Shown here in pieces: positions 1,801-46,132 of a stretch of DNA of 64,000 bases. Positions within the stretch are counted from its first letter, which is position 1; every line of letters begins with the position of its first letter. Source of the DNA: Candidatus Latescibacterota bacterium (GTDB lineage: Bacteria > Latescibacterota > UBA2968); assembly GCA_965204375.1 (NCBI GenBank), contig OZ241986.1, forward strand, positions 224,001 through 288,000, written 5' to 3'. The notes below the pieces were generated by a model. The model searched no databases. It had not been told where the DNA came from and saw only the letters and a program-made list of their open reading frames with translations. Position numbers and translations under genes: made by a program.

Positions 1801-1855
1801 TGGATGTTCCGCAGGGGCGGGATGTCCTATTTTTTTTAGACACGAGACGCGAGAG

Positions 1856-4800: not shown

Positions 4801-4867
4801 TGGGCGCGTAAGACCTGCTCGTCAGACCATACATCTCGGGCGCGTGGAGATGCGGGCGGTGTTTTGA
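1856..4867 (+). CDS. Large (~1000 aa) secreted/outer-membrane beta-rich protein of unknown function
   Basis: Probable ATG at 1856 followed by a signal peptide (..VTVHA|Q); two 'SERV++.G....RG/D.DY.+D...' modules; amphipathic beta-strands; C-terminal Phe (EMRAVF). Confidence 0.7.
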   Translation: MSFDTLRIAQSIAFFFLCVVTVHAQVPVPEQFTLFDGEKVFQSDGSRGPFAISDRAIEAASERVWVDGVLRIRDRDYVVDADRALLTLLRDVARGVEIVVRFRQRPLVTAPVVQRRQFQPGEGGEDQPIVRVFSPPVVRDRDEEQKLTIGGHKSISVTAGSQHAVHQALQLRISGEVAEGVNLLTVLSDRNLPIGEQGGSKRLQELDRVFFQVDADQVSATLGDLDVAFDGTVFGRYRRQLQGARVLAHREKGQVAVFGAVSRGRWETRRLVTVEGFQGPYSLSGGGLRGQIVPESERVYLNGRLLIRGDGADYTIDYERGHVAFMPEIPIGVESRVTVEYQVIDAGMRSRLMGMESRVSLGEGMSVGTTLIRESDRPSLSPGIASVQRQLGVVYATYTPWSNACVSGEVALSDRDSGSGRGVRMDGAFAGRNFEVTGRFRQVGADFEAFERLDRGRAAGRWGWQADTARTAQREGEVAVRWDLGKVLSVTGEYGQHVGVVRTDRKSVGIRSPVGMYRYESLGRDSGGMRRHEGQVEVSMGEIVPGFRFSLENGVGDGVSSSSLFYAARPRVLPQGIDKQELVWHMGIGEGRNWSWVSELKYRKFRQRETVWQDSLRGWLHTHRAQVTNWKGWIFSGSYTHGEIQIGRERQQTTTHLGRVRLGHNRPGSSHQITYRVSSTRVSQPIFVEVASGLGEYIWEDANGDGLRDVEEFVPDVDGDYVRVYDYGQFAPARDGALGMRVEIDFRRLIGDEHFLSVVALDASLRTERQIAIGTKHAAPWNLFGFDAGAGILGARRDGLVRLYLFRYHRRGSLRLTARVRDQVNRAFYGGAAEFFVQGGALGKLRPVDRLELETEFDLGHRAREGAGAFAYRIDGASGALRCAFRSAHKWYLRLGVLSGRDWERVRALRAWHIGVQPEVIYALPGRGRLRGRLDWTRVWATDTAPLFLGLARGNRQGQNWAWRLGMDYRFGKYVSARVMYDGRVRPARQTIHLGRVEMRAVF

Positions 4868-4976: not shown

Positions 4977-6647
4977 ATGAATACAGATAAATACATAAAG
5001 GTATGGCGATACTTTCTGCTTGCGATGTGGATGGTCTGTGTCGCGTCCAGCGCGGGGGGAGAGGTGCGTGCGATTGTGAAGCGCGTGCAGGTTGAAGGTG
5101 CGCGGTCTGTAAGTGTGCGCGATGTGCGGGGATGGTTGGTTACGCGGTCAGGGGTTGCGGTGGATTCGGCGTTGTTGCGAAAGGATGTTTCCCGCATTTT
5201 GAAGGGGTATCAGGCGCGTGGATTCTGGCATGTGGCGGTGGCTTTTCCCAGGGTTGCAATGCGCGGTGGCGATGTGGCGGTGGCTTTTGAGATTACTGAG
5301 GGGGTGCGTACACGGGTTGCGTCTGTGGCGTTACACGGTGATTTGATCTTTGAGCAATCGGATGTGCTTATGGCTTTTGGTCTGGCGCAGGGTATGGTGT
5401 TGCTCGAAAGCGATTTGAACCAGCGGTTGGATCATCTGTTGCGTTTTTATGAAGATCGGGGCTACCCGTTTTGTGCGTTGCGTCCAGATGTGCAATTTGA
5501 TGGCGATGGCGCGTGCGTGCAGGTGGTGGTGTCGCCCGGTCCTCTGGTGCATGTCGATGCGGTGCGTTTTGAGGGCAATCAAACGACTCGAGAAGATGTT
5601 TTGTTGCGGCATATTTCGTTTGTGGCAGGCGAGGTCTATGACCAGCGTCGCGTGGATGCTTTTGTGAGGCGGTTGCAGATTTTGCCGTTTATTGACCGGG
5701 TTTATACGCCTGAATTCGTATCTACCAATGATGAGATGACTCTTGTGATCAGTGTGGAAGAGTCGCGACATACGCGCATTGAAGGGGCGCTCGGTGTGGG
5801 ATCTGGACAGGGTTTGACCGGGGAGATTGCGCTCGATGTTCTGAATTTTTCCGGTGGGGGGCGAGAGGGTTATGCGCTTTGGTCTCGGCAGGGGGTGGGG
5901 TTGTCGAATTTGCGCGTGTCGTATCGCGAACCCTATGTGTTAAAAAGTCCGCTTTCTGGTTGGGGGGTGGTGGAGATGGTTGCGCGCCCGGGGTATGTGA
6001 CGCATAAGTTTGGAGGGGGTGTAGATGTTTCTGTGGGTGATGGCGCGCGCTTTTTTGGTGGTGTTGCACACAGGCGCGTTTTGCCCGATTCCACGGGGTT
6101 GGAATTTTACGGGGCTGAAAGGATGTGGTCTCTCGAGTCGGGTGTTCGATTTGATCGGCGAGGGCATTCTATGAGCGGCTGGCTGGCGGAGATCAGGGGA
6201 GAGGTCGGCGAGGTTTCAGGTGGGATCAGGCGGGTGCAGTGGGGGGTTGATGGTCAGGTGTTTTTGCCTGTGGACAGGCAGTCTGTTATTGCGGGACGGG
6301 CGCGCGCTATGTGGGTGGGACAAAAGGGGGATGTGCCGCAGTCTGCCGGTATCTGGCTGGGGGGCGCACAATCGCTGCGGGGCTATCGGGAGGAGATGTT
6401 CTGGGGGACAAATGCGGGGTGGGTCAATGTGGAGTGGCGGTGGTTGTTGGGGCCGAAAGCGCGGCTTTTTGCATTTGTCGATGTGGGCAGGATTGAAGGG
6501 GCAGGGACGCGTTCATGGCCCGTGTCCTATGGTGTAGGTCTTTTGGCAAATGGACGTATGGGTGCAGTTGGGATAGATTATGGTTTGCCACGGGGTGAGA
6601 GTTTGGGGCAGGGTATGGTGCATGTGCGGATGGTCAGTGCGTTTTAG
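4977..6647 (+). CDS. Omp85 (BamA/TamA) family outer membrane protein with POTRA domains
   Basis: Signal peptide; POTRA-like repeats ('V..V.FEGN..TRE.VL'); 'LGGAQSLRGYRE' L6 motif; C-terminal Phe. Confidence 0.85.
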   Translation: MNTDKYIKVWRYFLLAMWMVCVASSAGGEVRAIVKRVQVEGARSVSVRDVRGWLVTRSGVAVDSALLRKDVSRILKGYQARGFWHVAVAFPRVAMRGGDVAVAFEITEGVRTRVASVALHGDLIFEQSDVLMAFGLAQGMVLLESDLNQRLDHLLRFYEDRGYPFCALRPDVQFDGDGACVQVVVSPGPLVHVDAVRFEGNQTTREDVLLRHISFVAGEVYDQRRVDAFVRRLQILPFIDRVYTPEFVSTNDEMTLVISVEESRHTRIEGALGVGSGQGLTGEIALDVLNFSGGGREGYALWSRQGVGLSNLRVSYREPYVLKSPLSGWGVVEMVARPGYVTHKFGGGVDVSVGDGARFFGGVAHRRVLPDSTGLEFYGAERMWSLESGVRFDRRGHSMSGWLAEIRGEVGEVSGGIRRVQWGVDGQVFLPVDRQSVIAGRARAMWVGQKGDVPQSAGIWLGGAQSLRGYREEMFWGTNAGWVNVEWRWLLGPKARLFAFVDVGRIEGAGTRSWPVSYGVGLLANGRMGAVGIDYGLPRGESLGQGMVHVRMVSAF

Positions 6648-6757: not shown

Positions 6758-6800
6758 GATTCGTAGATTTGTAGATTCGTAGATTCGTAGATTCGTAGAT
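6758..6800 (+). repeat. Tandem 8-bp repeat (GATTCGTA) x5
   Basis: gattcgta gatttgta gattcgta gattcgta gattcgta gat, ending 46 bp upstream of the next ATG. Confidence 0.9.
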
Positions 6801-6846
6801 GAACTGCTGGCGCAGTTGTACCCCGTTCCGTAGAAAGGAGAGTTTT

Positions 6847-8772
6847 ATGTTGAGCAGGATTCGCAGTATCATGCTGGTAACACTTGCCGCGGGTCTCATG
6901 TGGGGCTGTGGCGGCGAGCGCGGGATGGAGCCTTCCGGAGTAGATGAGCAGATTGGACGTCCGCTGAGTAAAATGGCTGTAGCGGGTGGTGGTATGTCTC
7001 AAGCGACGGTAGTGGCGACTGTGTCGCAAGATGATGCGCTTGTGGCAGGTGTGATGGTCGAGTTTGCGCGTTCTATTGCCGGGCAGGCGCCCGATTATCA
7101 GTGGTCGGGTATGACTGATGAGATGGGTCGCGTCACGGTGGAGATATCCGGCCAGGCGAGTGGATATTATCAGGCGCGTGCGTCTCGGGATGGCTCTGTG
7201 ATGGGGCGTTGGTCGAGTATTCCGATCAATGGAGGCTATACGTCAACAGTTGCGTTGCCCATTGGTGGGATGGCACGAGTGATAGGTTCGTCTCGACCCA
7301 TATCAGTTGGCCTTGTCGTGTCCCAAACGGGGCGGCTATCCGCGGTAGGACAGGCGTTTATCAGTGGCTTTGAAATGGCTCGTGAAGAGGTGGAATCGCA
7401 GCCGGGCGGTGCGAGTTTGAGGTTTATTATCGAGGATGATCAGAGTACAATAGAAGGGGGTAAGGCTGCGTATAATAAACTCATTCATGAAGATGGCGTG
7501 CCGGCTATTCTCGGTGTTTTTTCTTCTACCATCGTGCGCGAGGTGTTTCCCATTGCGCAGGAAAATGGGGTTGTGGCGATTAGTCCCACTTCGGCTGCGC
7601 GCGGCCTCAGCGCAATTGGCGATTTTGTTTTTCGCGTCAGTCTTACCGTTGATGCGTTGATTCCGAGCAGTGTAAAACTGACTCGAGAAAAATTGGGCTA
7701 TGAGCGCGTGGCTACGATGTTTGAAAGCGGAGATGTTTTTTCGCAGAGTAGCGACGAAGTGTTGAAAAGTGCCTTTAGTGAGAATGGCGTCGAGGTTCTC
7801 ACTACTGAGACTTTTGAAACCGGCGATATGGATTTTTCCGCACAGTTTTCCCGGATTGTGGCGTTGAATCCAGATGCGATTTTTGTTTCGGCTTTGCCAG
7901 CAGGGAGGATACAGGCTCTGATCGATGGGAGACAACACGGCATTCCTATTCTGATTCCCGGGCTCACTATAGACGAGGTAGATCGCGCTGGGGAGGCGGC
8001 CGAGGGGGCAATTAGTTTTACGTCGTGGAGCAGCACGGGCAATATACCGGCCAATCGCGCCTTTATTGAGAATTACATGGCGAAATACGGCACCGAACCG
8101 AACCGATACGCCGCTACGGCCTACGCGACGGTTCATATTTTTGCAAAGGCGATTGCAGATGCCCCGTCCTCCGATCCGCGCGCAATTCGGGATGCGCTGG
8201 CTCAAATCGAGAATTTGGATACGGTTTTGGGCGCGTTCTCATTTGACGCCAATGGAGATGCGATTTTCAATCCGGCTGTTGTGGTTGTTAAGGATGGGAA
8301 ATTTGAGAATTTTGGGTCGTCACTGCCAACGGCAACTGCGATTATTAACGAGACGAATGAAAGCGGCTTAACCGGAAAAGCGGTTTTCACACAGAACGGC
8401 GATAATATCAAGTTCGTCATCTCAGTCGCTAATGCGTCTCCAGGCGAACACGCTGTCCATATCCACGAAACTGGCGATTGCAGTGCATCGGACGGAACTT
8501 CGGCTGGCGGGCATTGGAATCCCACTGGCGTGGCACACGGAAAATGGGGCGAAGGTGAATTTCATCTGGGTGACATCGGCAATTTGACAGCCAATGCACA
8601 GGGCATGGGAAAACTTGAACTGACGACAAATCTTTGGGAGATGAACACTGGCTCAGATATAGATTTTGTCGGAAAAGCGATTATCGTCCATGCGGATGCT
8701 GATGATTTTGTCTCACAACCTTCGGGGAATGCTGGCCCGCGAATTGGTTGCGGCGTGATTAAAATGGATTGA
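6847..8772 (+). CDS. Lipoprotein: N-terminal beta domain + branched-chain amino acid (LivJ/Peripla_BP_6) binding domain + Cu/Zn superoxide dismutase domain
   Basis: RBS AAGGAG before ATG 6847; lipobox LMWG|C; SBP motifs 'IIEDDQS', 'GDMDFSAQ', 'GAFSFDANGD'; SOD motifs HAVHIHE, GDCS, SAGGHWNP, HLGDIGN, IIVHA, GNAGPRIGCGVI. Confidence 0.85.
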   Translation: MLSRIRSIMLVTLAAGLMWGCGGERGMEPSGVDEQIGRPLSKMAVAGGGMSQATVVATVSQDDALVAGVMVEFARSIAGQAPDYQWSGMTDEMGRVTVEISGQASGYYQARASRDGSVMGRWSSIPINGGYTSTVALPIGGMARVIGSSRPISVGLVVSQTGRLSAVGQAFISGFEMAREEVESQPGGASLRFIIEDDQSTIEGGKAAYNKLIHEDGVPAILGVFSSTIVREVFPIAQENGVVAISPTSAARGLSAIGDFVFRVSLTVDALIPSSVKLTREKLGYERVATMFESGDVFSQSSDEVLKSAFSENGVEVLTTETFETGDMDFSAQFSRIVALNPDAIFVSALPAGRIQALIDGRQHGIPILIPGLTIDEVDRAGEAAEGAISFTSWSSTGNIPANRAFIENYMAKYGTEPNRYAATAYATVHIFAKAIADAPSSDPRAIRDALAQIENLDTVLGAFSFDANGDAIFNPAVVVVKDGKFENFGSSLPTATAIINETNESGLTGKAVFTQNGDNIKFVISVANASPGEHAVHIHETGDCSASDGTSAGGHWNPTGVAHGKWGEGEFHLGDIGNLTANAQGMGKLELTTNLWEMNTGSDIDFVGKAIIVHADADDFVSQPSGNAGPRIGCGVIKMD

Positions 8773-9691: not shown

Positions 9692-10876
9692 TCAATTTAA
9701 TGGGTTTTCTTGTTTTCCATATAGGCGATAGAGGCCCACACCGCAGGCGAGTGCGCCGAGGCAAAATAAGACGGAGATGCCAAAGGGCCAGATAGGCCCC
9801 TTGTCGATGAGTTTTCCGCCGCCGAGGCTGCCGGAGAGCATGCCCAGGCTCCAGGCGAGGTGGGCTGCGCCAACGACGCGGCCTTTTTCGTCTTCGCGGG
9901 CGATCAATTGTATGAGGCCCGGCATGGTGGTCGATAGAGACCAGGCCGAGGCGGTTGCGAGAATGCCAAAGGCATAAATGCCAGTAAGGGTGTGCGCGGT
10001 GAGGGCGAGACCGAGGGCGCTGATGGCGACGAGCGATGCGGAGACGAGGATGGGACGCCAGCGCCCAATGCGGTCGCAAAGCCGGCCAGTGAGTACTTGA
10101 AAACAGGCTGCAATGATCAGGCTGATGGCACTGTAATTCGTGGCTGCGGTGCTGGTGCCCGCAATGCGAAAGATGAGTAGGGGTAAGAGCAAGGTGACGG
10201 CACCCCAATAGCTGGTGGGCAGGTAGCGGATGCCCAACAGGAGGCATACGTCGAGACGGCGGAGCAGTTGAATGAATTCGGAGAGATTGCGACTATTGTC
10301 GGCAGATTTTGGCGAGGGGATCGCGGGGAGGATCAGGATGCTCATCAGGACGAGCACTACCCCTGCGAGTGTGATGCAAAAACCGAGGGTTTGAAATCCA
10401 AATGTATCCGCGATGGGACCAGAGAGAAAATTTCCCGAAGCCGAGCCGAGGGTGTTGCCGAGAAAATAACCAGCCGATGCGATGCCGATGACAGAGGATG
10501 GGGCTGCGCTGATGAGATAGCTTTGTCCTCCGGCGCTGTTAAAGCCAGAGGAGATGCCAATACCGGTACACAGAGCAGTCAGGAGGAGAGGATCGCCGCT
10601 GTAAAAAATAACTCCGGCGAGAATAGGTCCCAAAGTGCCGAGGACGTAAACGGGTTTGACACCCCAGGTATCGGCAAGGCGGCCCGCAGGTACGGCAAAG
10701 ACACCGCCTAAAATGAGAAATGCTGCACGCAATCCCCCGGAAAAGAGGGGTGTGCCGAGCAAGTCTGCTTCGACATATACGGGGAGGAGGGTGTTGAGGG
10801 GTGCAGAGACAAAGCTGCTAAAAAAAGAGACGATGAGCAGGGCGATGAAACGGCGATTGAGGAGTTCGGAATACAT
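9692..10876 (-). CDS. MFS transporter
   Basis: About 12 hydrophobic segments; motif A 'GRLADTWGVK' and repeat 'GRLCDRIGRW'. Confidence 0.9.
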   Translation of the reverse strand: MYSELLNRRFIALLIVSFFSSFVSAPLNTLLPVYVEADLLGTPLFSGGLRAAFLILGGVFAVPAGRLADTWGVKPVYVLGTLGPILAGVIFYSGDPLLLTALCTGIGISSGFNSAGGQSYLISAAPSSVIGIASAGYFLGNTLGSASGNFLSGPIADTFGFQTLGFCITLAGVVLVLMSILILPAIPSPKSADNSRNLSEFIQLLRRLDVCLLLGIRYLPTSYWGAVTLLLPLLIFRIAGTSTAATNYSAISLIIAACFQVLTGRLCDRIGRWRPILVSASLVAISALGLALTAHTLTGIYAFGILATASAWSLSTTMPGLIQLIAREDEKGRVVGAAHLAWSLGMLSGSLGGGKLIDKGPIWPFGISVLFCLGALACGVGLYRLYGKQENPLN

Positions 10877-23046: not shown

Positions 23047-24300
23047 TTGAAAAATACTACAGTTGCATTTTATAGCCAGCATCTCATTGGCGTTGGGCAC
23101 CACTTTCGCAATCGACAGATTGTCAATGAACTGGTCAAGACCTGCGATGTGTTTTTCATCGATGGCGGGCGACCAATTCCCGAGGCTGATCTCGATAAAC
23201 GGGTGGTGCGTATTCTCCTGCCGCCCCTTCGCTCGGGCGCACAGGGCATTGAGTCTGTTGATACGGAGAGAGATTTGCAGACTGTGATGCACGAGCGTCA
23301 GGTCAGGCTTTCCGAAGCTATGGAACAGATTTGTCCGGATGTGTTTTGTGTTGAATTTTTCCCTTTTTCCAGATGGTCGCTCAAGAGCGAAATCCTCAAT
23401 ACAATAGTCAGGCTCAATGAGGTCAATCCCGACGCGCAGGTGTTGTGTTCTCTGCGCGATATTCCAACGCGGGCAAAAAGCAATGTGTTGCAACCGACTG
23501 CCGCGCTTGTCCAGAGGCGGGATGGGGACGCGATGCGGTTTTATTCGGTGCCTTTTGGCGGGATACATCACGAGTATTTAGCTTTTAATCGGCGGTATTA
23601 CGAGGAGGTCGTGCCCGTGTTGAATCAGTATTTCGATGCGGTATTGGTGCATGGCGATTCTCAACTATCCCGGCTGGAAGATCACTTTCCCTGGACTGCT
23701 GATATCAGTATTCCCGTGGTTTATACGGGGTTTGTTTCTGAGAAACTCGAGAACGCATCTCGGCCCAATAGTGCGCCGAATCGGTATGTGCTGGTCAGTG
23801 CTGGCGGTGGAACTGAGGGGCTTGCGCTTGTTGCGCCATGTATTGAAGCGTGGAAACAATTGGATCAGGGCGATGCGCACGATGGACGCGAGATGGTGAT
23901 TTTTACTGGTGCGTTTATCGATGAAACGCATTTTGACGCTTTGCATGCGTTGTGCGGTGATGGTCCGTTTCGCATTGAGCGTTTTACGTCCAATTTTTTG
24001 GCCTGGATGAAACACGCGGATTTGTCGATTAGCCGGGCGGGCTACAATACGTGTATGAATGTACTTGAGACAGGTGTTCCATCGATTCTGGTGCCGAGTA
24101 TTGCGATGGATGATCAGGAATTTCGCGCGCAGGAACTGATGGGGTTGGGTATTGCAGGGGTGATACACCCCGATCAACTCGGTGCGGAAAAGATAGCAAA
24201 AGCTATTGCCGAAATGCTCGAAAGTTCTGTGCCCAAACACCATCTATCCCTGGACGGTGCCGAGCAAACGCGAAAATTTATAGACAGCGGTGCAAGGTAA
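23047..24300 (+). CDS. GT-B glycosyltransferase (COG4671-like, GT28 C-terminal-type domain)
   Basis: 'FYSQHLIGVGH', 'VEFFPF', 'CSLRDI', 'VLVHGD', 'LVSAGGG', 'SISRAGYNT', 'LVP....DQ..RA', 'LDGA'; TTG start. Confidence 0.85.
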   Translation: MKNTTVAFYSQHLIGVGHHFRNRQIVNELVKTCDVFFIDGGRPIPEADLDKRVVRILLPPLRSGAQGIESVDTERDLQTVMHERQVRLSEAMEQICPDVFCVEFFPFSRWSLKSEILNTIVRLNEVNPDAQVLCSLRDIPTRAKSNVLQPTAALVQRRDGDAMRFYSVPFGGIHHEYLAFNRRYYEEVVPVLNQYFDAVLVHGDSQLSRLEDHFPWTADISIPVVYTGFVSEKLENASRPNSAPNRYVLVSAGGGTEGLALVAPCIEAWKQLDQGDAHDGREMVIFTGAFIDETHFDALHALCGDGPFRIERFTSNFLAWMKHADLSISRAGYNTCMNVLETGVPSILVPSIAMDDQEFRAQELMGLGIAGVIHPDQLGAEKIAKAIAEMLESSVPKHHLSLDGAEQTRKFIDSGAR

Positions 24301-24315
24301 AAAACGAGGTGAAAG

Positions 24316-25719
24316 ATGAAAATTTATGTGTCACATCCGTATCACGACCGCGAGAAAGTGATGGCGTCGAATAGCGGGGCGTCCCTTTCGGGTTTTAACC
24401 ATGTGCAGGCGTTATCGAAGTATTGCGATGTGTATATGCCAGCGTCTGAAGCGGTGGATTATGGTCCGAATTTGCACGGTATTCAACCCGCATTTGAGAC
24501 GATTGATTCATCTCGCCAGTGGTTTGCGCGGCAGGATTTTGATGGTCTGTTGATGTTTGAACCCAGGGCAGATGACCTGGCGTTTTTTCGCCATGTGTGT
24601 CCCGCACCCATTGTGCTTCGGCTGTCGTGTTCTTTTGGACACAATCGGGATTTTGTCGATAAGGTGCTGAATTGTTATTCGCTGTTGCGGCCTTATGATG
24701 CCCTGTCGCCCAAGTCGGTGTATGTCGCTGACGAAGTGGGCAAGTTGGTGTTTGACAGATCGTATTTGCACGCGATTACCAATGGGGTAGATGCCGAGGT
24801 GTTTGTGCCAATGGATAAGTTGCACGCGCGCAAAGAGGTCGCGGATAAGACGGGTGATCAACGTTTCTTAGAGATGCCTGTGGTGGGTTTTTGCGGACGG
24901 TTTGAGCCGGGCAAGGGCGCGTATCCGTTTTTGCGGATGGCCGATTTGAATCCCAATGTGTTGTTTGCTGTGATTGGCAAGCAGTTCGCACCCGTGACGC
25001 ATCCTCCCAATGTGATCTTTTTGGGTGCGCAACCCTATACGCAGATGTCGCTGTATTACAATATGCTCGATGTGTTGTGCGCGCTGTCGGTGTATTCGTA
25101 TGAGTCTTGTCCCTCAACTGTGATAGAGGGCATGGCGTGTGGTCTTCCGGTTGTTGCGACAAATTTTGCGGGCGCGCCAGAGTTGTTGGGCAGTTGTGGG
25201 CGGTTGATTGAGATTGAGCGATTTGAAGATGAGCCATTGAATGTGACGGGGTATATCGCCCCTGAGGTGATTTCAGATGCTGTGCGCGATTTGTTGAATA
25301 GCAAAACGGAGCGTGTAGATATGGGGGAGCGTGCTCGCAAACGCGTGCTCGATTTTTCCTGGGATCATACGGCGCAGCAGCATATGACACTATTTAAAAA
25401 TCTGCGGATCAAACGCGATGCATCCGCCTGCCCGATACCAATAACCGTGAGTTTTACACAGGGTTGTGATGTATCTGGCGTGCCGAAAAGCATGTCTAAG
25501 GGATTTAACTATTTGGGAAGCGTGCAAGGTCCTTTGCCGCGCATTTCGTTTTTTGGGCAAGACCTGCCCCTTCTTGAAGGCTTGGTCCTTCACTTGATGC
25601 AACATTTACATCCAAACGAAGTCGAGGCTGTTCTGATGGGTTTATGCGAGACGCGCGCAATGGCCCACAAAACGCTTCGCAAAATCCGACACTTCAGCGA
25701 TATGCTCACGGCTCCCTGA
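24316..25719 (+). CDS. GT4 family glycosyltransferase with ~95-aa extra C-terminal domain
   Basis: 'ITNGVD...F', 'GRFEPGKG', 'ESCPSTVIEGMACGLPVVAT...GAPE' (EX7E), 'FSWD..A'; sequence continues ~95 aa past the usual GT4 end. Confidence 0.85.
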   Translation: MKIYVSHPYHDREKVMASNSGASLSGFNHVQALSKYCDVYMPASEAVDYGPNLHGIQPAFETIDSSRQWFARQDFDGLLMFEPRADDLAFFRHVCPAPIVLRLSCSFGHNRDFVDKVLNCYSLLRPYDALSPKSVYVADEVGKLVFDRSYLHAITNGVDAEVFVPMDKLHARKEVADKTGDQRFLEMPVVGFCGRFEPGKGAYPFLRMADLNPNVLFAVIGKQFAPVTHPPNVIFLGAQPYTQMSLYYNMLDVLCALSVYSYESCPSTVIEGMACGLPVVATNFAGAPELLGSCGRLIEIERFEDEPLNVTGYIAPEVISDAVRDLLNSKTERVDMGERARKRVLDFSWDHTAQQHMTLFKNLRIKRDASACPIPITVSFTQGCDVSGVPKSMSKGFNYLGSVQGPLPRISFFGQDLPLLEGLVLHLMQHLHPNEVEAVLMGLCETRAMAHKTLRKIRHFSDMLTAP

Positions 25720-25774: not shown

Positions 25775-25999
25775 ATGACTGAGCGCATTACATCAAGGCC
25801 AGCACAATTTTTTGTGACCTGTGTTCAGCTTCCCGGTCAAGAAAGCGAACTGGCACATGGTGAGATGGCGAATACTGCAGGAGGATGCATTTTGCCAGGA
25901 GAAGATCCACTTGAGCATCTTGAAGATATTATTGATTATGTCGAAGATGCGGTGGATTATATCGGAGATGCGGTGAGTGAATGGTGGGCTTCTTGGTAG
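25775..25999 (+). CDS. Putative double-glycine-leader precursor peptide A (74 aa; 37-aa acidic core)
   Basis: Strong RBS AAGGAGGT; leader ends ELAHGEMANTAGG; directly upstream of a C39-peptidase ABC transporter; paralogous to the next ORF. Confidence 0.75.
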   Translation: MTERITSRPAQFFVTCVQLPGQESELAHGEMANTAGGCILPGEDPLEHLEDIIDYVEDAVDYIGDAVSEWWASW

Positions 26000-26098
26000 C
26001 AATCGCACCACGCCCCGTAAGACGCTATTTCTGTTGTTCAGGTACTGGACGAAAATCATTTTTTCTGAATATTACAATTCATTTACCTGGAGGATATC

Positions 26099-26470
26099 AT
26101 GTATAATCGCGTGACTACAGATTCAGACGCCGCTTTTGCCTCTTGCACAACACTGCCTATCTATCAAAAAACGCTTAATGCTGAAGAGATGGCGGATATT
26201 GATGGCCTGGGAAGTGTGACAGATGCTATTGATGCAGCGGTAGATTATGTTTCTGATGTTGTTGATAAAATAGGAGATAGTGTTTCTGATTTTGTTGATT
26301 CGTTGTATTTTTACCCTCAGGATGCTGAGCCCATATATCTGCCTGATCCAACTACTATCCCAGCACCACCTGATACAATGAGGATGGTTACTAATGTAAT
26401 GTATTCCTGCGATGTGACGATCGCGGAGTTAGCTTCTGGTGCGATTTGTCCGTGTATGCCGCCGCCGTAG
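26099..26470 (+). CDS. Putative precursor peptide B (123 aa), same leader family
   Basis: RBS GGAGG; leader ends TLNAEEMADIDG(LG); 12 of the first 37 residues are identical to peptide A without gaps. Confidence 0.72.
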   Translation: MYNRVTTDSDAAFASCTTLPIYQKTLNAEEMADIDGLGSVTDAIDAAVDYVSDVVDKIGDSVSDFVDSLYFYPQDAEPIYLPDPTTIPAPPDTMRMVTNVMYSCDVTIAELASGAICPCMPPP

Positions 26471-26531: not shown

Positions 26532-26662
26532 TGTTATATGAGGTAGGACTTACGTCACTCAGTACTGGAGAGTAGATAGCTTGCCTGACAGAGATTCTCA
26601 GAGCATTTTAGAAATCAGCATTGTAGTTGAGTTATAGACATGTTGCAGGACGGTTGGAGAAA

Positions 26663-29600
26663 ATGAATCTTTCGCACTTTTTCACCAAAAACTCGGTGCG
26701 TTCACAATCTGTTCACTTTCCCTTTGGAGGTGTTGTTTTTCAACAGGGTCAGGCGGGTGAGGCGTTTTACATTGTGCAGTCTGGACGGTTGCGGGTGATT
26801 AAGGAGGATGCGAATGGCAATTCGACAACTGTGGGCTATTTGTATGCGGGCGATCATTTTGGCGAAGGGGCATTGTTGAGTGGGCAAGGGCATCGGGCAT
26901 CGGTGCGTGTGGTTGAGGATGCGGATGTGTTGCAGGTGCCGAAGGATGAGTTTTTTAAGACTGTGAGAAAAAATTCTGACGTACGAGGTTATCTCGAAGA
27001 ACAGGTCGCCTGTATTGCGTATCGGGATTTTACGCGTTTTTTGAAAGGGGATGTTCCAGGCGAGGTGATGCGGGTGTTGTTCGCGCGGTTGAAGCGCGAG
27101 GTGGTTGAGCAGGGAATGACGGTTGTTGACCGAGGTCAGTTGGGTCATCGGTTTTATTTGATTGGCAGCGGTCAGTTGGAGGCTGTGTCAGAAAATGGGG
27201 ATACGGTGGTTTTAAACGCGGGTGATTATTTTGGTAATGAGAATTTGTCAGGTGATAAAAGAGTGATTCGCAGTCGGCGTGATAGTGTGCTTTTTTATAT
27301 AGATAAAAGCAATTTTAATAAGTTAAAAGCTATGATGCCGGGGTTTGAAGAAAGACTGGAGAGAGGACGTATATCGCGTGGAGAACAGCGATCGAATGAG
27401 TCATTGTTTCGACACGAACGACAAGTGCCCGAACCACCCGTTGACCGGTCTGATGAAAAACTGGCATCCAATATAGCATCCAATGTGGTTAATATCAGAA
27501 TAGACGGTGCAAAACCACAGGTGCCTACATTATTTCGCTTTCCATTTTTGAAGCAACACGATCAATCGGATTGTGGTGCGGCGTGTTTGGGCATGATTTG
27601 TAAGTATTACAATATGCCTATTGGGTTGAACAGGCTGCGCGATATGTCCAATGTGTCGCGGTATGGCACGTCGATGGCGGCATTGGCTGAGGCTGCGGAA
27701 ACCCTGGGTTTTATCACGCGCGGCGTGCGCACGGGATATGAGGCTCTGATAAAAACAGAATTGCCAGCCATTCTCCACTGGGAGGGCAATCATTTTGTGG
27801 TCTTGTATCAGATCAATAAAAAGGAGGTGAAGATAGCAGACCCCGGCGTGGGTATTCGCAAGCTGTCGCGGGCAGAGTTTGAGAAGGGGTGGACAAACAG
27901 GGCACTGTTGTTGGAATACACGGATCAGGTGGCGGAGAATGAACCGTCTCAGTCTTCTTTTAAGCGATTTTTTCCGTTAATCAGGCCCTATACAGGCATT
28001 TTGATTGAGGTATTGCTGGCGTCTCTGGTGCTCAGTTTGTTTGGTCTGGCATCGCCCATTTTTATGCAGACGATTGTCGATCAGGTCTTAGTGCATCACG
28101 ATAAGGATTTGTTGAACTTGATGCTGGTGGGTATGGTCGTGGTTGCGTTGTTCCAGATGGGCACATCAACGTTGCGCGTCTATTTAATCGGGTATATGAG
28201 TGCGCGGTTGAGCATTGCGATGTTGTCGCGTTTTTATCGGCATTTGCTGGCGCTGTCCATGCAGTTTTTTGCTCTCAGGCGCACGGGCGATTTGACCACG
28301 CGATTTAAAGAGAATGCAACGATTCGGCGATTGTTGACAGGTACGACGGTTTCTGCAGTTCTGGATTTTATCATGCTTTTTGTCTATCTGGGCTTGATGT
28401 TTTATTACAACACTGAACTGACGCTGGTCATGCTGATTTTTGTGCCGCTCCCTGTAGGGCTTACGCTGATTTACACGCCCATTTTGAAGGCTTTCAGCCA
28501 GCGCGCTTTTTTGGCGCGTGCCGAACAATCATCGGTTTTAATCGATTCGCTTCATGGCATTGATGTGGTCAAAGCCTCGGCGGTTGAGCGCGCGACGCGG
28601 TGGCATTGGGAAGGTAAGTTTACAAAGGAAATTCAGATTGGCTTTCAACGGTTAAAAATGCAGATGTTGTTTGGAGGGATAGGAAGTGTGATCAATTTGT
28701 TGAGCAGTACGGTGATTTTGTGGTATGGCGCCTCATTGGTGATTGAAGGGAACCTGTCGGTTGGACAGTTGATGGCGTTTAATGCGCTGATTGGCAATGT
28801 GATGGGCCCCATTATGGGCTTGATTGGGATATGGCCGCAGGTGCAAGAAGCGCGTATTGCTCTGGATCGGTTAAATGATGTGTATGATACGCAGATGGAG
28901 GATGCGCGACAACAGGGTCAGGGTTTGGTCTTAAAGCCTTTGGAAGGGCGTGTGGTTTTTGAGCGGGTGTTTTTCAGATACGGTATCGGTTCTGATGAAC
29001 CTTATGTGTTGAATAATATAGACTTGACACTTGAACCGGGTCAAAAAGTTGCAATTGTGGGACGCAGCGGCGCGGGTAAGACGACGTTGGTGAAACTGGT
29101 GCCTCGTTTATTTGATCCGTCAGAAGGTCGCGTGACGCTCGATGGGATGGATGTGCAGGATCTGGACCCTCATTGGTTGCGGCGACAGGTGGGTATGGTG
29201 ATGCAGGAACCGTTTTTGTTTTCTGGCACGATTGCAGAAAATATCGCCATTGGTCAGACAGACGCGGACATGGACCGCATTTTGGAAGTGGCAAAGCTAT
29301 CGTGTGTACACGATTTCGTAAGCGATATGCCTTTGGGGTATGAGACAAAGGTGGGCGAGCGGGGTGTGGGATTATCGGGTGGACAACGACAGCGGATCGC
29401 GATTGCACGGGCGCTGTATTGCGATCCCAAGATTTTGATTTTTGATGAGGCGACCAATGCCTTAGATACGGATTCAGAACAGGCGATTCAGGCGAATTTA
29501 GATCTGTTTTTGGATGATCGCACGGCGTTGATTATTGCGCATCGGTTGAGTACTGTGCGCGATGCGGATGCAATTGTGGTCCTGGACAAGGGGCACATTG

Positions 29601-29683
29601 TGGAGATGGGCACACACGATGAGTTGATGGTGCAACAAGGTTTGTACTATCACATGTGTAGTCAACAGTTGCAAGTAGTATGA
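26663..29683 (+). CDS. Peptidase-containing ABC transporter (PCAT/HlyB type): 2x cNMP-binding domains + C39 peptidase + TMD + NBD
   Basis: cNMP 'GEAFYIVQSG', 'GDHFGEGALL'; C39 'QHDQSDCGAACL', 'HWEGNHFVV', 'IADP'; Walker A GRSGAGKT, LSGGQ, DEAT, IAHRL; start uncertain (26627 TTG or 26663 ATG). Confidence 0.92.
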   Translation: MNLSHFFTKNSVRSQSVHFPFGGVVFQQGQAGEAFYIVQSGRLRVIKEDANGNSTTVGYLYAGDHFGEGALLSGQGHRASVRVVEDADVLQVPKDEFFKTVRKNSDVRGYLEEQVACIAYRDFTRFLKGDVPGEVMRVLFARLKREVVEQGMTVVDRGQLGHRFYLIGSGQLEAVSENGDTVVLNAGDYFGNENLSGDKRVIRSRRDSVLFYIDKSNFNKLKAMMPGFEERLERGRISRGEQRSNESLFRHERQVPEPPVDRSDEKLASNIASNVVNIRIDGAKPQVPTLFRFPFLKQHDQSDCGAACLGMICKYYNMPIGLNRLRDMSNVSRYGTSMAALAEAAETLGFITRGVRTGYEALIKTELPAILHWEGNHFVVLYQINKKEVKIADPGVGIRKLSRAEFEKGWTNRALLLEYTDQVAENEPSQSSFKRFFPLIRPYTGILIEVLLASLVLSLFGLASPIFMQTIVDQVLVHHDKDLLNLMLVGMVVVALFQMGTSTLRVYLIGYMSARLSIAMLSRFYRHLLALSMQFFALRRTGDLTTRFKENATIRRLLTGTTVSAVLDFIMLFVYLGLMFYYNTELTLVMLIFVPLPVGLTLIYTPILKAFSQRAFLARAEQSSVLIDSLHGIDVVKASAVERATRWHWEGKFTKEIQIGFQRLKMQMLFGGIGSVINLLSSTVILWYGASLVIEGNLSVGQLMAFNALIGNVMGPIMGLIGIWPQVQEARIALDRLNDVYDTQMEDARQQGQGLVLKPLEGRVVFERVFFRYGIGSDEPYVLNNIDLTLEPGQKVAIVGRSGAGKTTLVKLVPRLFDPSEGRVTLDGMDVQDLDPHWLRRQVGMVMQEPFLFSGTIAENIAIGQTDADMDRILEVAKLSCVHDFVSDMPLGYETKVGERGVGLSGGQRQRIAIARALYCDPKILIFDEATNALDTDSEQAIQANLDLFLDDRTALIIAHRLSTVRDADAIVVLDKGHIVEMGTHDELMVQQGLYYHMCSQQLQVV

Positions 29684-29771: not shown

Positions 29772-31154
29772 ATGGCAGAACGGCTTTTGGAGACATCGCC
29801 CGAGACAATGTCTCCCGGTATAATCCAGGGACAAGATGACGCGGCAGAAGAGGTGCATGCGTTTATGGGGTCTTTGCGGCCCTTTTGGGGGCGTGCATTG
29901 CTCTATATTGTCCTGCTGTTTGTGATTGTTGCCATTATCTGGGCGTGGTGGAGTAAGGTAGATGTGGTGGCATCAGCACCTTTTCGATTGGTGCCTTTGG
30001 GACAGGTGAAGACGATGCAGGCGCAGCGAGGTGGTGAAATTGAGTTGATTGGTGTTAAAGAAGGGGATCATGTCGAGAAAGGTGAGGTGTTGTTTAAGCT
30101 GAAATCGTGGGAGACGTGGGGAGAGTTGCGGGAATGGGAACAGGCAAAGATGGCTTTTCAAAAGGCGCAGTACGATCTCAAGGCGGTGTTGCCACAAAGA
30201 ACGAGATTAAATCGAGAGACGATAGGATCATTGGAACAACGTCTTTCTGTTTTGCAGCGGTTTATGGAGGCACATCAGAATGCGCTGGAAGATTATCAAA
30301 GCGATGTGGGCGGTGTTGAGGGATCGAAAACCAAAATATCTGACGCGGGGTTGCAAGCGCAGATCGGTTTTCGACAGGCTGAGATTGATCTTATGAAACA
30401 GGAATTTTTGCAGCAAAAAACGCTGTTTGAGCGCGCATTGATCAGCCGGGCGGATATGAATCGCGCGCGTGTGCAGTATTTGAGTGCATTGTCCGCGCTT
30501 CCGGGACGCATGTCGGAGATATACAAGAATGAAATGGCTGTGCAGGATCTCAAGCGTCAAATCACAGAAGCGCGGATTGCACACGAGCGCGAGGCTTCGC
30601 AGATGCGATACGCTTATGAAATCGCACAATTGCGATTGGAGCAGGCGCGCAAACGCATTGATCGCACCCTCGAAGCCGAGTCGGATTTGATTCTGGCGCC
30701 TGAATCAGGGATTGTCACACAGGTGATGGTGAATGCAGTTGGACAGGTGATCAGTAAGGGGCAACCTTTGGTTGCACTGGCACCGGCCTCAGCGCCGGTG
30801 GTTGCAGAAGTGATGGTGTTGAATAAAGATGTGGGCTTGCTCAAACCCGGGCAGTTGGTTAAGCTGAAATACGATGCGTATGCCTTTCAGGATTTTGGTA
30901 TCAAACGCGGATGGCTTACATCCATCTCGCCCGATGCGGTGATCAATGAAAGTATTGGACCGATATTTAAGTGCGTTGTCGAATTAGAAGAAAATACGAT
31001 GCGCGTGAAAGGATATGACAAGCCTCTGATGTTTGGTATGAAGGGCACGGCTGAGATGATGACAGATCGCCAATCGGTCTTGCTGATGTTGCTGAGTCCT
31101 TTGCGACAGCTTTACGAGTCGGCAAGGTACGATGTTCAGGAGGGCGCATTGTGA
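29772..31154 (+). CDS. HlyD family membrane fusion (periplasmic adaptor) protein
   Basis: One N-terminal TM helix; 'VKEGDHVEKGEVL' lipoyl half; long coiled coil; 'APESGIV'; 'NKDVG....GQ.VKLK.DAY.FQ.FG', 'ISPDA'. Confidence 0.92.
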   Translation: MAERLLETSPETMSPGIIQGQDDAAEEVHAFMGSLRPFWGRALLYIVLLFVIVAIIWAWWSKVDVVASAPFRLVPLGQVKTMQAQRGGEIELIGVKEGDHVEKGEVLFKLKSWETWGELREWEQAKMAFQKAQYDLKAVLPQRTRLNRETIGSLEQRLSVLQRFMEAHQNALEDYQSDVGGVEGSKTKISDAGLQAQIGFRQAEIDLMKQEFLQQKTLFERALISRADMNRARVQYLSALSALPGRMSEIYKNEMAVQDLKRQITEARIAHEREASQMRYAYEIAQLRLEQARKRIDRTLEAESDLILAPESGIVTQVMVNAVGQVISKGQPLVALAPASAPVVAEVMVLNKDVGLLKPGQLVKLKYDAYAFQDFGIKRGWLTSISPDAVINESIGPIFKCVVELEENTMRVKGYDKPLMFGMKGTAEMMTDRQSVLLMLLSPLRQLYESARYDVQEGAL

Positions 31155-31924
31155 TGTCAGAGGATGCTATACTGGTTCAGGTCAATGATGTCGAGGTGTC
31201 GTTGCGCCAGGTCGTGCGACAATTGGGTGTTGCTGATAATCTGCATTTTTTTAATGGGTTTGCGTGCGGGGAATTGATACGGCAACTCGCCCGGCGCGAG
31301 GGTGTTTGTGCAGCGCGTGAAGATATTCAGCGGAAGGTAGATGAATGGCGGTATCAACATCGCCTGGAGCGGGTGGAAGATACAGAGGCCTATCTCGCAA
31401 AGCGAGGTATTACGCTTCAGGATGTGACAGAAGATGCCGAGGTGAGACAACTGGAGTATTTGCTGTCTGAGAAGATTGCCAAAGGACAGGTCGAATCCTA
31501 TTTCGCTCAACACACACTGGCGTTTGATGAGGCGGAGATTTGCTGGATTTTTCACACGGATAAGGGTGTGATTGACGAGATTGATTTGCAGATTCGAGAC
31601 GATGGTGCAGACTTTTACGCGATGGCGCGTCGATTTTCTCAAGATGCACGCACGCGATCAGGGAGTGGCTTTTTGGGCCGCGTGCGGCGCAAGCAGTTGC
31701 CAAAGGGGATTGCTGCGCGCGTTTTTGCCGTGTCACCAGGTGAAATTTTGGGTCCGGAAAAAGTATCGAAAGGCTTTGCGCTGTACCTGGTGCAAGAACG
31801 CTACCCGGCAACACTAAATGAACGAACAAAAAAGGAGATCCGCAAGCACCTGTTTAATCAGTGGTTGCAACGCGAAGTACAGAAGGCAGATATACGGTAT
31901 CCGATTTGGCAGGCGGAAAGTTAA
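31151..31924 (+). CDS. Parvulin/PpiC-type peptidyl-prolyl isomerase-like protein
   Basis: 'DFYAMARRFSQD......GFLG...R..L......VF....GEI.GP' rotamase pattern; helical N-terminus; overlaps the hlyD stop (GTGA). Confidence 0.8.
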   Translation: MMSEDAILVQVNDVEVSLRQVVRQLGVADNLHFFNGFACGELIRQLARREGVCAAREDIQRKVDEWRYQHRLERVEDTEAYLAKRGITLQDVTEDAEVRQLEYLLSEKIAKGQVESYFAQHTLAFDEAEICWIFHTDKGVIDEIDLQIRDDGADFYAMARRFSQDARTRSGSGFLGRVRRKQLPKGIAARVFAVSPGEILGPEKVSKGFALYLVQERYPATLNERTKKEIRKHLFNQWLQREVQKADIRYPIWQAES

Positions 31925-33414: not shown

Positions 33415-33490
33415 TGGAGCCGCCCAGCGGACTCGAACCGCTGACCGCCTGATTACAAATCAGGTGCTCTACCAGCTGAGCTAGGGCGGC
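33415..33490 (-). tRNA. tRNA-Thr (anticodon UGU)
   Basis: Reverse complement GCCGCCCTAGCTCAGCTGGTAGAGCACCTGATTTGTAATCAGGCGGTCAGCGGTTCGAGTCCGCTGGGCGGCTCCA: 76 nt cloverleaf, TTCGA T-loop, encoded CCA. Confidence 0.97.
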
Positions 33491-44717: not shown

Positions 44718-44887
44718 TGGTTAGTAGTAAAAGGCGATAAGCACCAAGGTACGGGTAAAAAAGAAAAAAGATATCCGATTGGTCACACGACAGGGCGACG
44801 GTTTGAAAATATCCGATTGATTTTTCATAACAAATTCGTTTCTTTGTTCAAGAATTTAGTTTTGTGTACGGGCACGCCGAACGAGGA

Positions 44888-46132
44888 ATGGGTATGCTAT
44901 TTAATAGACTAAAGTTTTCGGGGCTTTTGTCCTTTGGGCCACAGGGGGTCGATTTGCCGATGGAACCGCTAAACGTCCTGATCGGCCCGAATGGTTCGGG
45001 CAAGTCCAACTTTCTGGAGGCAATTTCGTTGTTCCACGCCGCTCCACGCGGTATTGGAGAACCCATATCACGCATGGGCGGCGTCCGCGAATGGTTGTGG
45101 AAGGGTCCGGATGCATCGGATTCGATTACTTTGGAAGCTCTGGTTGACTTTCCGCTAAAGGGCCTGTTGCAGCATTCTCTGACTCTCACCGATCAGGGTG
45201 GGACCCCCGTGGTGGCTGACGAACGAGTCGAACCCACTGAAGTGCATTCCGACGAGCGCGATGGGCGGTCCTACTACCGCCCGCCTAAAGACAAACAGGC
45301 GGCGTTAGAGATGGCAAATGCCAACGCAGAGGCAATGTCGAAGCCTAAAAATGTAAATGTCGGTGAGTGGTCAGAACCTCTCTTGTTTGCTCGGTACCGC
45401 CCAGGTGCTATCGAGTTCGCGAGTGAGTTTGAACCGGGGCAGTCTTTACTGTCTCATTCTGCCCTACCGGATTATCGGGCACTTTGGCATCTAAAAGAGC
45501 AGTACACGCGCATTCGTCTTTACCGGAACTGGTCATTCGGACCTGGCGCGAATTTACGCCTACCCTGCAACGCACACGCCCGTAGCGATTTTTTGGATGA
45601 AGGTGCTGAGAACTTACCACTCGTGCTATCTCAACTACCTGGACAGCAGAAGAGGAGACTTCTGAGTGAGTTGGGCAAGCTATTTGATGGCATTGTCGAT
45701 GTGAGTTGTCCAGTAACGGGCGGCACGGTGGCGTTATTTCTCGAAGAAGAGGACGGACGCTATATTCCTGCCACTCGCCTCTCGGATGGGACGCTACGTT
45801 ACTTGAGTTTGTTGGCTGTCTTATTGCATCCCGAACCGCCGCCTCTGATTTGTATTGAGGAACCGGAATTGGGGTTGCACCCTGATCTGTTGCCCACGTT
45901 GAGCGACTTGATGTGCGAAGCGTCAAAGCGCAGTCAAGTGATCGTTACGACTCATTCTGATGTGCTTGTGGATGCGCTGACGGATAAACCAGAGAGCGTC
46001 GTAGTCTGCGAGAAACACAGTGGACAGACGGAGATGCGCCGTCTCGATAAGGAAGATTTGGCAAAGTGGTTAGAGAAATACAGACTGGGCGATCTTTGGA
46101 CTTCGGGTGAGTTGGGCGGAAATCGATGGTGA
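44888..46132 (+). CDS. AAA_21/ABC-type predicted ATPase
   Basis: Walker A 'GPNGSGKSN'; signature 'LSDGT'; Walker B 'IEEPELGLHP'; 'TTHS'; C-terminal 'LGDLW..GELGG'. Confidence 0.88.
   Translation: MGMLFNRLKFSGLLSFGPQGVDLPMEPLNVLIGPNGSGKSNFLEAISLFHAAPRGIGEPISRMGGVREWLWKGPDASDSITLEALVDFPLKGLLQHSLTLTDQGGTPVVADERVEPTEVHSDERDGRSYYRPPKDKQAALEMANANAEAMSKPKNVNVGEWSEPLLFARYRPGAIEFASEFEPGQSLLSHSALPDYRALWHLKEQYTRIRLYRNWSFGPGANLRLPCNAHARSDFLDEGAENLPLVLSQLPGQQKRRLLSELGKLFDGIVDVSCPVTGGTVALFLEEEDGRYIPATRLSDGTLRYLSLLAVLLHPEPPPLICIEEPELGLHPDLLPTLSDLMCEASKRSQVIVTTHSDVLVDALTDKPESVVVCEKHSGQTEMRRLDKEDLAKWLEKYRLGDLWTSGELGGNRW

Follow-up and report, generated by a model that had tools for sequence, protein, structure and literature searches.

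Why two adjacent small open reading frames (ORFs) carry the same conserved box in front of a double-glycine export signal, and which partner that box serves, are the questions raised by a locus of Candidatus Latescibacterota. The locus lies in a stretch of 64,000 nucleotides (hereafter, the window; contig OZ241986.1 of assembly GCA_965204375.1, positions 224,001 to 288,000 of the forward strand), in which ORF A (25775 to 25999, + strand, 74 aa) and ORF B (26099 to 26470, + strand, 123 aa) are placed between two glycosyltransferase (GT) genes, GT28-like and GT4, and a gene for a peptidase-containing ATP-binding cassette transporter (PCAT). The original prediction held that A and B are paralogous precursors with a common 37-residue leader, that the end of this leader is a recognition helix for a C39 peptidase, and that an extra F-x-x-C-x-x-L-P box may dock a modifying enzyme. 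Comparison with related loci favors, on balance, a reading of A and B as PCAT-exported, bacteriocin-like precursors with a new leader of 37 to 44 residues that would consist of three parts: a double-glycine helix, a hinge, and an N-terminal handle.

Ungapped alignment of residues 1 to 37 of A and B returned the same 12 identities on which the common leader had been proposed (positions 1, 4, 6, 13, 16, 19, 20, 26, 30, 31, 32, and 36), and 200,000 shuffles of the B leader never produced as many identities, nor a BLOSUM62 score as high as the observed 43. On the + strand, the A leader occupies 25775 to 25885 (37 aa, ending in G-G) and is followed by an acidic core at 25886 to 25999 (37 aa plus stop) with an N-terminal Cys, a D-x-V-S-E motif, and a Trp-rich tail; the B leader (26099 to 26209, 37 aa) ends in G-L and precedes a core at 26210 to 26470 (86 aa plus stop) with an acidic repeat, a Pro-rich middle, and three conserved Cys near its end. 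The repeat in the B core, with a 33-nt spacing at 26250/26283, codes for V-S-D-x-V-D units. Whole-protein comparison of A and B by BLASTP (E = 5e-11, 25/75 identical) showed that their likeness reaches beyond the leader, to an acidic D-Y-V-x-D-x-V-D-x-I-G-D-x-V-S motif of the core (after residue 37), which recurs across the family, so that a description as unrelated cores behind a common leader is not fully accurate for A and B. Full-length homologues of similar lengths formed 58 clusters for A (E <= 0.1; 59 candidates) and 22 clusters for B (E <= 0.01; 29 candidates). Mean pairwise identity was 0.78 in the leader versus 0.61 in the core among the 59 A-family sequences, and 0.80 versus 0.54 among the 22 B-family sequences. 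V14, C16, E23, G36, G37, C38, S68, and E69 are invariant in the A family, C38, S68, and E69 being the only such residues of its core; in the B family, the leader holds 17 of the 24 invariant columns, and C104, C117, and C119 are invariant in the core. These homologue families, the ribosome-binding sites of both ORFs (GGAGG located 9 nt upstream of the ATG in A and 6 nt in B), and the better conservation of leader than core confirm, at the level of sequence, that A and B are conserved real genes.

Transcript data were drawn from RNA libraries of different studies, which may contain DNA. Contigs of library X9 matched 25783 to 26105 plus both ends of B, with the middle replaced, and library X20, from another study, yielded a single 201-nt contig on 26132 to 26330; run X24 had no contig on the window. 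Since X9 covers all 30 bins of the window, as does DNA run X6 from the same sample, the X9 and X20 contigs are only a weak hint of transcription, and depth cannot rank the genes. ORF A starts 55 bp after the end of the GT4 gene and is followed by a weak stem-loop at 26034 to 26052, found by a terminator scan. Promoter predictions in the window (11) were indistinguishable from those in shuffled sequences (11.9).

The first of the three parts would comprise the last ∼12 residues of the leader, L(-12)x3E(-8)M(-7)x2[I/T](-4)xG(-2)[G/L](-1), forming a double-glycine helix behind which C39 would cut. With the cut behind residue 37, A presents L(-12), E(-8), M(-7), T(-4), and G-G, and B presents L(-12), E(-8), M(-7), I(-4), and G-L. 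The recognition helix claimed for the two leaders (L at -12, E at -8, a hydrophobic residue at -7, and G at -2) is conserved in the family: an alignment of 60 leaders shows no variation at L19 or G(-2) and retains L(-12) in 90% or more of its sequences. The adjoining PCAT (26627 to 29683, + strand, 1018 codons) consists of two cyclic nucleotide (cNMP)-binding (CNB) domains, a C39 peptidase, and the membrane and ATPase domains of an ABC transporter. Its C39 region (Pfam Peptidase_C39, E 7e-40) matches PCAT1 (4ry2, E 4e-23), LahT150, and ComA, and the catalytic Cys, His, and Asp motifs are aligned and intact. The residue at -1 in 96 family representatives is G (72), L (11), E (6), A (3), M (2), K (1), or Q (1), with Leu in one-third of the leaders from GT-bearing genomes; A thus fits the pattern of Gly(-2) plus a small residue, whereas B has G-L. 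This noncanonical end, already pointed out for B, can be placed at -2/-1, because a B-type leader in a related locus (L012), whose core matches that of a G-L sibling (L016), has G-G there and because conservation among B-type and Gly-rich-core precursors stops exactly behind I-D-G-L.

Comparison with bacteriocin leader models, a check proposed with the original prediction, located the likeness to known leaders in this part. Three of the 60 leaders touched TIGR01847, through their last 12 to 14 residues only and at 12.9 to 14.6 bits versus a cut-off of 15.7, and the other 57 did not match it. One Gly-rich-core relative scored 24.5 bits with PF10439 (cut-off, 27.1). A and B themselves had no match in Pfam or NCBIfam, and none of the 60 leaders matched the Nif11 or NHLP leader models of NCBIfam at E <= 10. 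Two matches to TIGR04497 (E 0.024 and 0.13) were discarded as uninformative for the N-terminal box, since they fall on the double-glycine half. Taken with the comparative data on their neighborhoods given below, A and B are very probably precursors and substrates of the PCAT next to them, which together with its HlyD-type adaptor would cut both peptides behind the leader and export them.

Related loci show how freely this leader is combined with other sequences. Fifteen were found in species-representative genomes, all of them Candidatus Latescibacterota or Latescibacteria metagenome-assembled genomes (MAGs), some homologues carrying the NCBI name "Gemmatimonadetes bacterium". The GT28, GT4, PCAT, HlyD, and PpiC-like products, where matched, are 78 to 94% identical to those of the window; A is 45 to 82% and B 48 to 78% identical. 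The stretch between GT4 and PCAT is a variable cassette in which one leader precedes cores of six or more unrelated kinds. Such fusions were seen across these 15 and 20 further loci, and the break lies exactly behind G-G or G-L. Homologous leaders near related PCATs, required by the original prediction, were indeed found: the PCAT, HlyD, and PpiC-like genes adjoin leader genes in a fixed position in 25 of 36 tabulated loci, the remainder being mostly truncated or degenerate. Some cores are rich in Gly and Ala, hydrophobic, and weakly similar to PF10439 (E 2.6e-5, under the cut-off) and to Gly-zipper families; their genes are followed by genes for Rce1-like CPBP proteins (E 1e-16 to 2e-20) and for DUF3267 membrane proteins, an arrangement that, by analogy, is typical of bacteriocin genes and the immunity genes that accompany them. 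Other members end in runs of four to seven Cys, with tails of the C-C-C-C-C-C-C-D-D type (L058 and L059), and one of these loci (L058, G091:C1:4124000-4143999) holds three near-identical copies of one precursor between GT4 and PCAT, one of them beside a different partner. Two natural hybrid precursors (P0058 and P0075) combine the front of a B-type leader, through the C-x-x-L-P box, with an A-type double-glycine helix and an A core, which suggests recombination within leaders.

A profile built from 22 leaders detected the family in 41 of the 168 genomes of the phylum, with up to eight copies per genome. It is confined to two families of the phylum (22 of 30 and 18 of 22 genomes) and is present throughout two genera, g1 (20/20) and g10 (15/15). 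When a profile of 60 leaders was run against 1.84 billion representative proteins, 100 were retrieved at E <= 1e-3, of which ∼96 are proteins of 54 to 168 aa that begin, or nearly begin, with the leader; the other four, long or repetitive, look spurious. The family amounts to about 96 clusters at 50% identity, and both the alignment and the profile matches establish the N-terminal box as its hallmark, as had been anticipated from two sequences. A cluster look-up of 10 distant representatives returned a Latescibacteria MAG hypothetical protein as the sole name. A scan of metagenome contigs for distant subfamilies gave no relative among 86 pattern matches, and two candidates from a second such scan (L070 and L071) were rejected as accidental matches over 14 residues that have neither a PCAT nor a GT beside them. 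Besides A and B, the genome of the window contains a third family member, located outside the window (L003, G000:C1, about 5,824,200), whose N terminus is cut off beside a mutator-type transposase ORF; no PCAT was seen within the 3 kb examined. In literature listings and abstracts, no description of the leader family or the cassette was found, and the accessible part of surveys from marine host-associated samples lists such Latescibacterota loci only as generic "RiPP-like" clusters (RiPP, ribosomally synthesized and posttranslationally modified peptide; PMC12993501). The family thus appears to be undescribed and, as far as seen, limited to one order of uncultured marine Latescibacterota.

To which partner the rest of the leader answers was assessed by grouping leaders according to the presence of the GT4 C-terminal domain in their genome, which gave 51 distinct leaders with it and 43 without it. 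The former group includes L006/L067, whose own locus holds GT remnants only, other copies being located elsewhere in the genome. The latter derives from 14 loci, namely, 13 of genus g10 (including L051, with PCAT fragments only) and L054 of genus g8 (GT4 remnant only). In the 13 PCAT-bearing g10 and g8 loci, which were among the 20 further loci fetched, leader genes stand beside PCAT, HlyD, and PpiC-like genes at 48 to 81% identity, and no GT28 or GT4 was detected within 20 kb at E <= 1e-4. Several leader positions are insensitive to this difference: L19 (100% with GT versus 100% without), P20 (90 versus 88%), C16 (78 versus 65%), L(-12) (98 versus 91%), and G(-2) (100 versus 100%). Within the helix, M(-7) occurs in 75 versus 65% and E(-8) in 78 versus 44%, with Q at -8 in 40% of the leaders from genomes without GT genes. 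R4, in contrast, is present in all 51 leaders with GT and in only 24 of the 43 without, and S7 (84 versus 42%) and F13 (49 versus 16%) follow the same trend. Several g10 leader types have H, L, Q, P, or S in place of R4, whereas divergent paralogous loci that bear GTs (GT4 at 51 to 67% identity) retain the Arg.

These contrasts divide the box. As L19, P20, and C16 are kept alike with and without GT genes, C-x-x-L-P is not GT specific and would have to serve something common to all loci; for this second part, a hinge at -22 to -18, the candidates are the extra domains of the PCAT, the PpiC-like protein, and the shape of the leader itself. The third part, N-R-[IV]-T-[ST] plus F13, would be the handle for an RRE-like (RRE, RiPP recognition element) C-terminal domain of GT4, and the link between an N-terminal sub-motif of the leader and the GT genes, based on these comparisons, is put forward tentatively, as a possibility short of even. 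The proposal that the box docks a modifying enzyme is hence partly supported: it appears right in spirit, since R4, S7, and F13 go with the GT genes, but placed in the wrong half, since C-x-x-L-P does not. The leader Cys, which had been singled out as conserved, turned out not to be universal, entire subtypes having V, P, A, or S at this position.

The cores follow GT presence as well. A Cys at +1 (or behind D-G or G-G) is found in 24 of 50 cores with GT and in none of 43 without, and a D-x-[VAILF]-S-[EDQ] motif is found in 29 of 50 versus none of 43, for which shuffled sequences gave expected counts of 1.2 and 0.3, respectively. The residues invariant in the A core (C38, S68, and E69) are exactly these two features. 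More widely, (G)-D-x-[VA]-S-[ED] followed by aromatics occurs in 35 of the 96 family representatives, against 1.2 expected from shuffles, in cores that are otherwise unalignable (e.g., L073, 3227 to 3751), and in none of the 43 cores from genomes without GTs; in the window, the element sits at 25886 to 25999 and 26210 to 26330. A distant subfamily, whose cores cannot otherwise be aligned, retains the D and S of G-D-x-x-S in 90% or more of them. Judging from these patterns, the core would receive sugars from GT4 and the GT28-like enzyme before its export, at Cys(+1), at the Ser of D-x-V-S-E, or at both, although modification at either residue must be called doubtful.

The candidate reader of the N-terminal motif is the tail of the GT4 enzyme (24316 to 25719, + strand, 467 aa; Pfam Glycos_transf_1, PF00534, E 1.2e-18, residues 186 to 343). 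Alignments of this protein with structures in the PDB (GlgM, MshA, and BshA) all end at residue 362, leaving a C-terminal domain of about 105 aa (25378 to 25716, + strand) that occurs only in orthologous GT4s (29 clusters, 28 of them of 467 to 468 aa) and in no other protein context. By profile, the domain is present in 25 of the 168 genomes of the phylum, including all 20 of g1 and none of the 15 of g10, the latter genomes being 92 to 100% complete. At 38 of the 39 places where it occurs in the phylum, a leader ORF lies downstream on the same strand within about 700 bp; 35 of these were hand-matched from coordinates, three divergent leaders were found on fetching the four exceptions, and one GT4 stands alone. 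An AlphaFold2 (AF2) model of the domain, of low confidence (pLDDT 61, with residues 55 to 113 at 64 to 80), shows strands at 25-30, 36-40, 55-58, and 61-64 and then helices at 65-76, 79-89, and 93-111; the model of full-length GT4 has the same strand-helix order at a pLDDT of only 58. RREs consist of three strands followed by three helices (PMC12710340), i.e., one strand fewer than the model. Comparison with 48,161 chains by VIA-align ranked RREs 7th, 8th, 11th, and 12th, under ribosomal proteins at a top Z of 7.6: TbiB1 with leader (5v1u, Z 6.4), a lasso B1 protein with leader (6jx3, 6.3), PqqD (3g2b, 5.6), and the N-terminal domain of CteB (5wgg, 5.4), although a Z under 8 may reflect merely a common arrangement. 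A search of the ESM Atlas with the model gave no usable match. The domain is possibly RRE-like on the strength of this model; its fusion to a GT4, its C-terminal position, and its lack of sequence similarity to the PqqD family would set it apart from known RREs.

In its most complete form, which as a whole we regard as rather unlikely, the three-part reading describes a new class of leader-guided glycosylated peptides, with three separable address labels on one leader: a GT4-RRE would read the N-terminal motif and, with GT28, glycosylate Cys(+1), through an S-linkage, and the Ser; the hinge and the helix would address the precursor to a nucleotide-gated PCAT and a PpiC-like chaperone; C39 would accept Leu(-1); and, as the comparative data suggest, the N-terminal label and both acceptor sites would decay together after GT loss. 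A number of observations weigh against the three-part reading in general. To our knowledge, Leu is not among the residues that C39 domains accept at -1, so B may be cut elsewhere. The likeness of the GT4 domain to RREs is weak (pLDDT 61 and 58, best VIA-align scores to ribosomal proteins), Foldseek with the domain model gave no PDB match at E <= 1e-3, and 14 members of the domain matched no Pfam family, including those of PqqD. No immunity-like gene was found in the cassette of this window. GT-bearing loci exist whose cores are without Cys(+1) (L055 and L058). On a PCAT tree of 27 distinct rows, for which 28 of the 36 loci provided an ORF of at least 900 aa with two marker strings (the eight left out being truncated, split, or PCAT-less), the GT label needs two changes only, one for the g10 clade and one between L054 and L055; the contrasts are therefore near a two-lineage comparison and could be lineage drift. 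L054, a recent GT loss, still has R4 and F13, which fits its recency and adds no test. In that locus, a 78-aa GT4 remnant (10404 to 10640) lies amid transposase ORFs upstream of the peptide genes; the piece was rejected as a free-standing domain gene. Another locus (L050, 9525 to 9926) has, by eye, a short sequence similar to the GT4 C-terminal tail just upstream of the peptides, which tblastn did not report at E <= 1e-4; if real, it would indicate secondary GT loss.

Among known ribosomal peptides, the glycocins (sublancin, glycocin F, pallidocin, and relatives) likewise combine a double-glycine-type leader, a PCAT, and GT genes in one cluster, and the conserved Cys and Ser of the present cores are candidate S- and O-glycosylation sites. 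Known glycocin S-/O-glycosyltransferases are of the GT2 type, however, and those of the window are GT4 (PF00534) and GT28/GT1-like (PF04101), a further point against the glycosylation proposed here. Glycocins are also held in a helix-loop-helix by two nested disulfides. The A core has a single Cys (C38), which makes paired disulfides in the glycocin style impossible, and the B core has three, near its C terminus.

The small number of GT losses suits an account in which the N-terminal half of the leader is an export-only handle, gripped by the PpiC/SurA-like protein or the tandem CNB domains to keep hydrophobic or aromatic cores export competent, and in which the differences at R4, S7, and F13 are drift. 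The two-CNB PCAT, HlyD, and the PpiC-like protein are the sole partners present both with and without GT genes. HlyD, a periplasmic adaptor, is encoded at 29772 to 31154 (+ strand; TIGR01843, 209.9 bits, above the cut-off of 208.65), and its gene end is overlapped by that of a cytoplasmic PpiC/parvulin-like protein (31151 to 31924, + strand, 257 aa; Pfam Rotamase, E 4.6e-13), in whose translation no signal peptide or membrane helix was seen and whose gene adjoins the PCAT in loci of both kinds. MirC, a PpiC-type protein of the TIGR04500 family, is described in the accessible part of the report on rosaritide biosynthesis as an indispensable, chaperone-like partner encoded with a PCAT in one RiPP cluster, and it is cytoplasmic and PpiC/SurA-like as well (PMC13097080). 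Unlike MirC, the protein of the window scores only 88 bits with TIGR04500, its best NCBIfam match (cut-off, 180), and covers profile positions 87 to 336, so that the first 86 or so, which form the weakly RRE-like N-terminal domain of MirC, are missing; neither is there an ATP-grasp enzyme here. A role of the CNB pair in gripping leaders is also made less attractive by HetC of Nostoc, which shares the CNB, C39, and ABC architecture and which, in the accessible part of the source, has a CNB domain that is required in vivo and bound ppGpp in vitro, pointing to a regulatory role (PMC10986499). Finally, R4 was lost several times in g10 leader types and never in the 51 leaders of GT-bearing genomes. 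On this evidence, the export-only account is unlikely.

As for the CNB domains of the window PCAT, the pair resembles the tandem domains of PKG/PKA (E 1.8e-16) and, by analogy with the ppGpp-binding domain of HetC, more probably gates the transporter by nucleotide. HetC is described in the same accessible text as having a single CNB domain, no known substrate, and no adjoining double-glycine gene, whereas the PCAT studied here has two CNB domains and its candidate substrates adjacent (PMC10986499). The PCAT scores above the cut-off for TIGR01193 (535.8 bits versus 523.85) and under that for TIGR03796 (583.8 versus 853.3), and its likely start is the ATG at 26663, since orthologues begin at this internal Met.

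That the GTs have nothing to do with the peptides, acting instead on an envelope glycolipid or polysaccharide and leaving A and B as unmodified class II-type peptides, is improbable. It would be in keeping with the habits of the GT4 and GT28 families, which act mostly on lipids and sugars, with the best NCBIfam and PDB matches of the two enzymes (MurG, MshA, BshA, and GlgM-like), and with the set that peptides, PCAT, HlyD, and PpiC-like protein form without GT genes in g10. The GT28/GT1-like (MurG/MGT-like) enzyme itself (23047 to 24300, + strand, 417 aa; Pfam Glyco_tran_28_C, PF04101, E 9.4e-15) has distant PDB matches to MurG, OleD, CalG4, and YjiC (E about 1e-3), and its gene is syntenic in related loci at 81 to 90% identity. 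Against such independence, the GT28-GT4-peptides-PCAT-HlyD-PpiC cassette is duplicated whole within one genome (L005, L013, and L017, all on one contig), a leader ORF follows the special C-terminal domain of GT4 at 38 of 39 places, that domain is found in no other protein, and Cys(+1) and D-x-V-S-E are confined to places with GT genes.

Decidedly improbable, too, is the opposite extreme, in which the whole F-x-x-C-x-x-L-P box docks the GT or GTs and has no role in export. The box does lie outside the canonical C39 recognition helix, GT4 with its RRE-like extra domain is located directly upstream of the leader ORF at nearly all places, and F13 is commoner with GT genes. Nevertheless, over the 43 distinct leaders, of several types, from the 13 GT-less PCAT loci of g10 and g8 plus L051, L19, P20, and C16 persist at the frequencies given above, and the GT4 C-terminal domain is absent from every g10 genome; once its partner was gone, a motif should have degenerated, which R4 has done in part. 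That the ORFs are not secreted precursors at all, being small cytoplasmic paralogues or untranslated and alike at the N terminus by plain paralogy, would agree with their lack of a Pfam or NCBIfam family and with RNA evidence that is not strict, but it is hardly credible in view of one N terminus that precedes numerous unrelated C-terminal parts and gives way to them directly after G-G or G-L, the invariant G(-2), the adjacent PCATs, and the strong ribosome-binding sites.

Seen as a three-part structure, the leader shares features with two established groups. With the double-glycine leaders of class II bacteriocins and competence peptides (TIGR01847/PF10439, processed by PCAT1, LahT150, or ComA), it has in common L(-12), E(-8), hydrophobic residues at -7 and -4, G(-2), and the PCAT and HlyD partners, and some family members add the Gly-rich hydrophobic cores and CPBP immunity-like neighbors of class II bacteriocins; unlike those leaders, it is about twice as long, has a conserved N-terminal extension of 20 to 25 residues, and is not hydrophobic at -15. 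With Nif11- and NHLP-type leaders, it shares the principle of one conserved leader on many hypervariable cores in a single cassette and, on the reading proposed here, the division into an N-terminal part that serves maturation enzymes and a C-terminal G-G that serves the PCAT. Those leaders are about twice its length and show no sequence relation to it, and the associated enzymes here are glycosyltransferases.

Other features of the window deserve mention. A 657-aa ORF (6799 to 8772, + strand) combines, in an unusual fusion, a periplasmic-binding-protein domain (Peripla_BP_6, E 2.5e-53) with one of Cu/Zn superoxide dismutase (E 6.8e-38). A 1036-aa ORF without a Pfam match at E <= 1e-5 (1757 to 4867, + strand) directly precedes a POTRA/Omp85 gene of the ShlB type (4977 to 6647, + strand), with which it may form a two-partner secretion pair. 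GC skew of the + strand, calculated in 2-kb windows, is very strong over positions 1 to 32000 (0.15 to 0.33) and falls to about zero at 32 to 38 kb, where genes switch to the - strand. Farther downstream are an AAA_21 (AbiEii-like) ATPase gene (44864 to 46132, + strand) and a DDE transposase gene (47683 to 49041, - strand), and the sole Rfam match of the window is a tRNA at 33418 to 33490 (- strand).

The customary view of double-glycine leaders is that of short tags whose one purpose is export. The ∼100 precursor clusters of this one uncultured clade carry a longer leader whose parts are separable by comparative genomics, one part staying with the exporter and another relaxing with GT loss, alongside two candidate acceptor residues. 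If the proposed mechanism is true, the locus would provide a leader-dependent peptide glycosyltransferase of the GT4 type, a new type of enzyme for RiPP engineering, as well as substrates that can be tested with the cNMP-binding PCAT beside which they are encoded and a test case for a C39 protease on a G-L site. The leader profile is usable to mine bacteriocin-like loci in Latescibacterota from marine host-associated samples.

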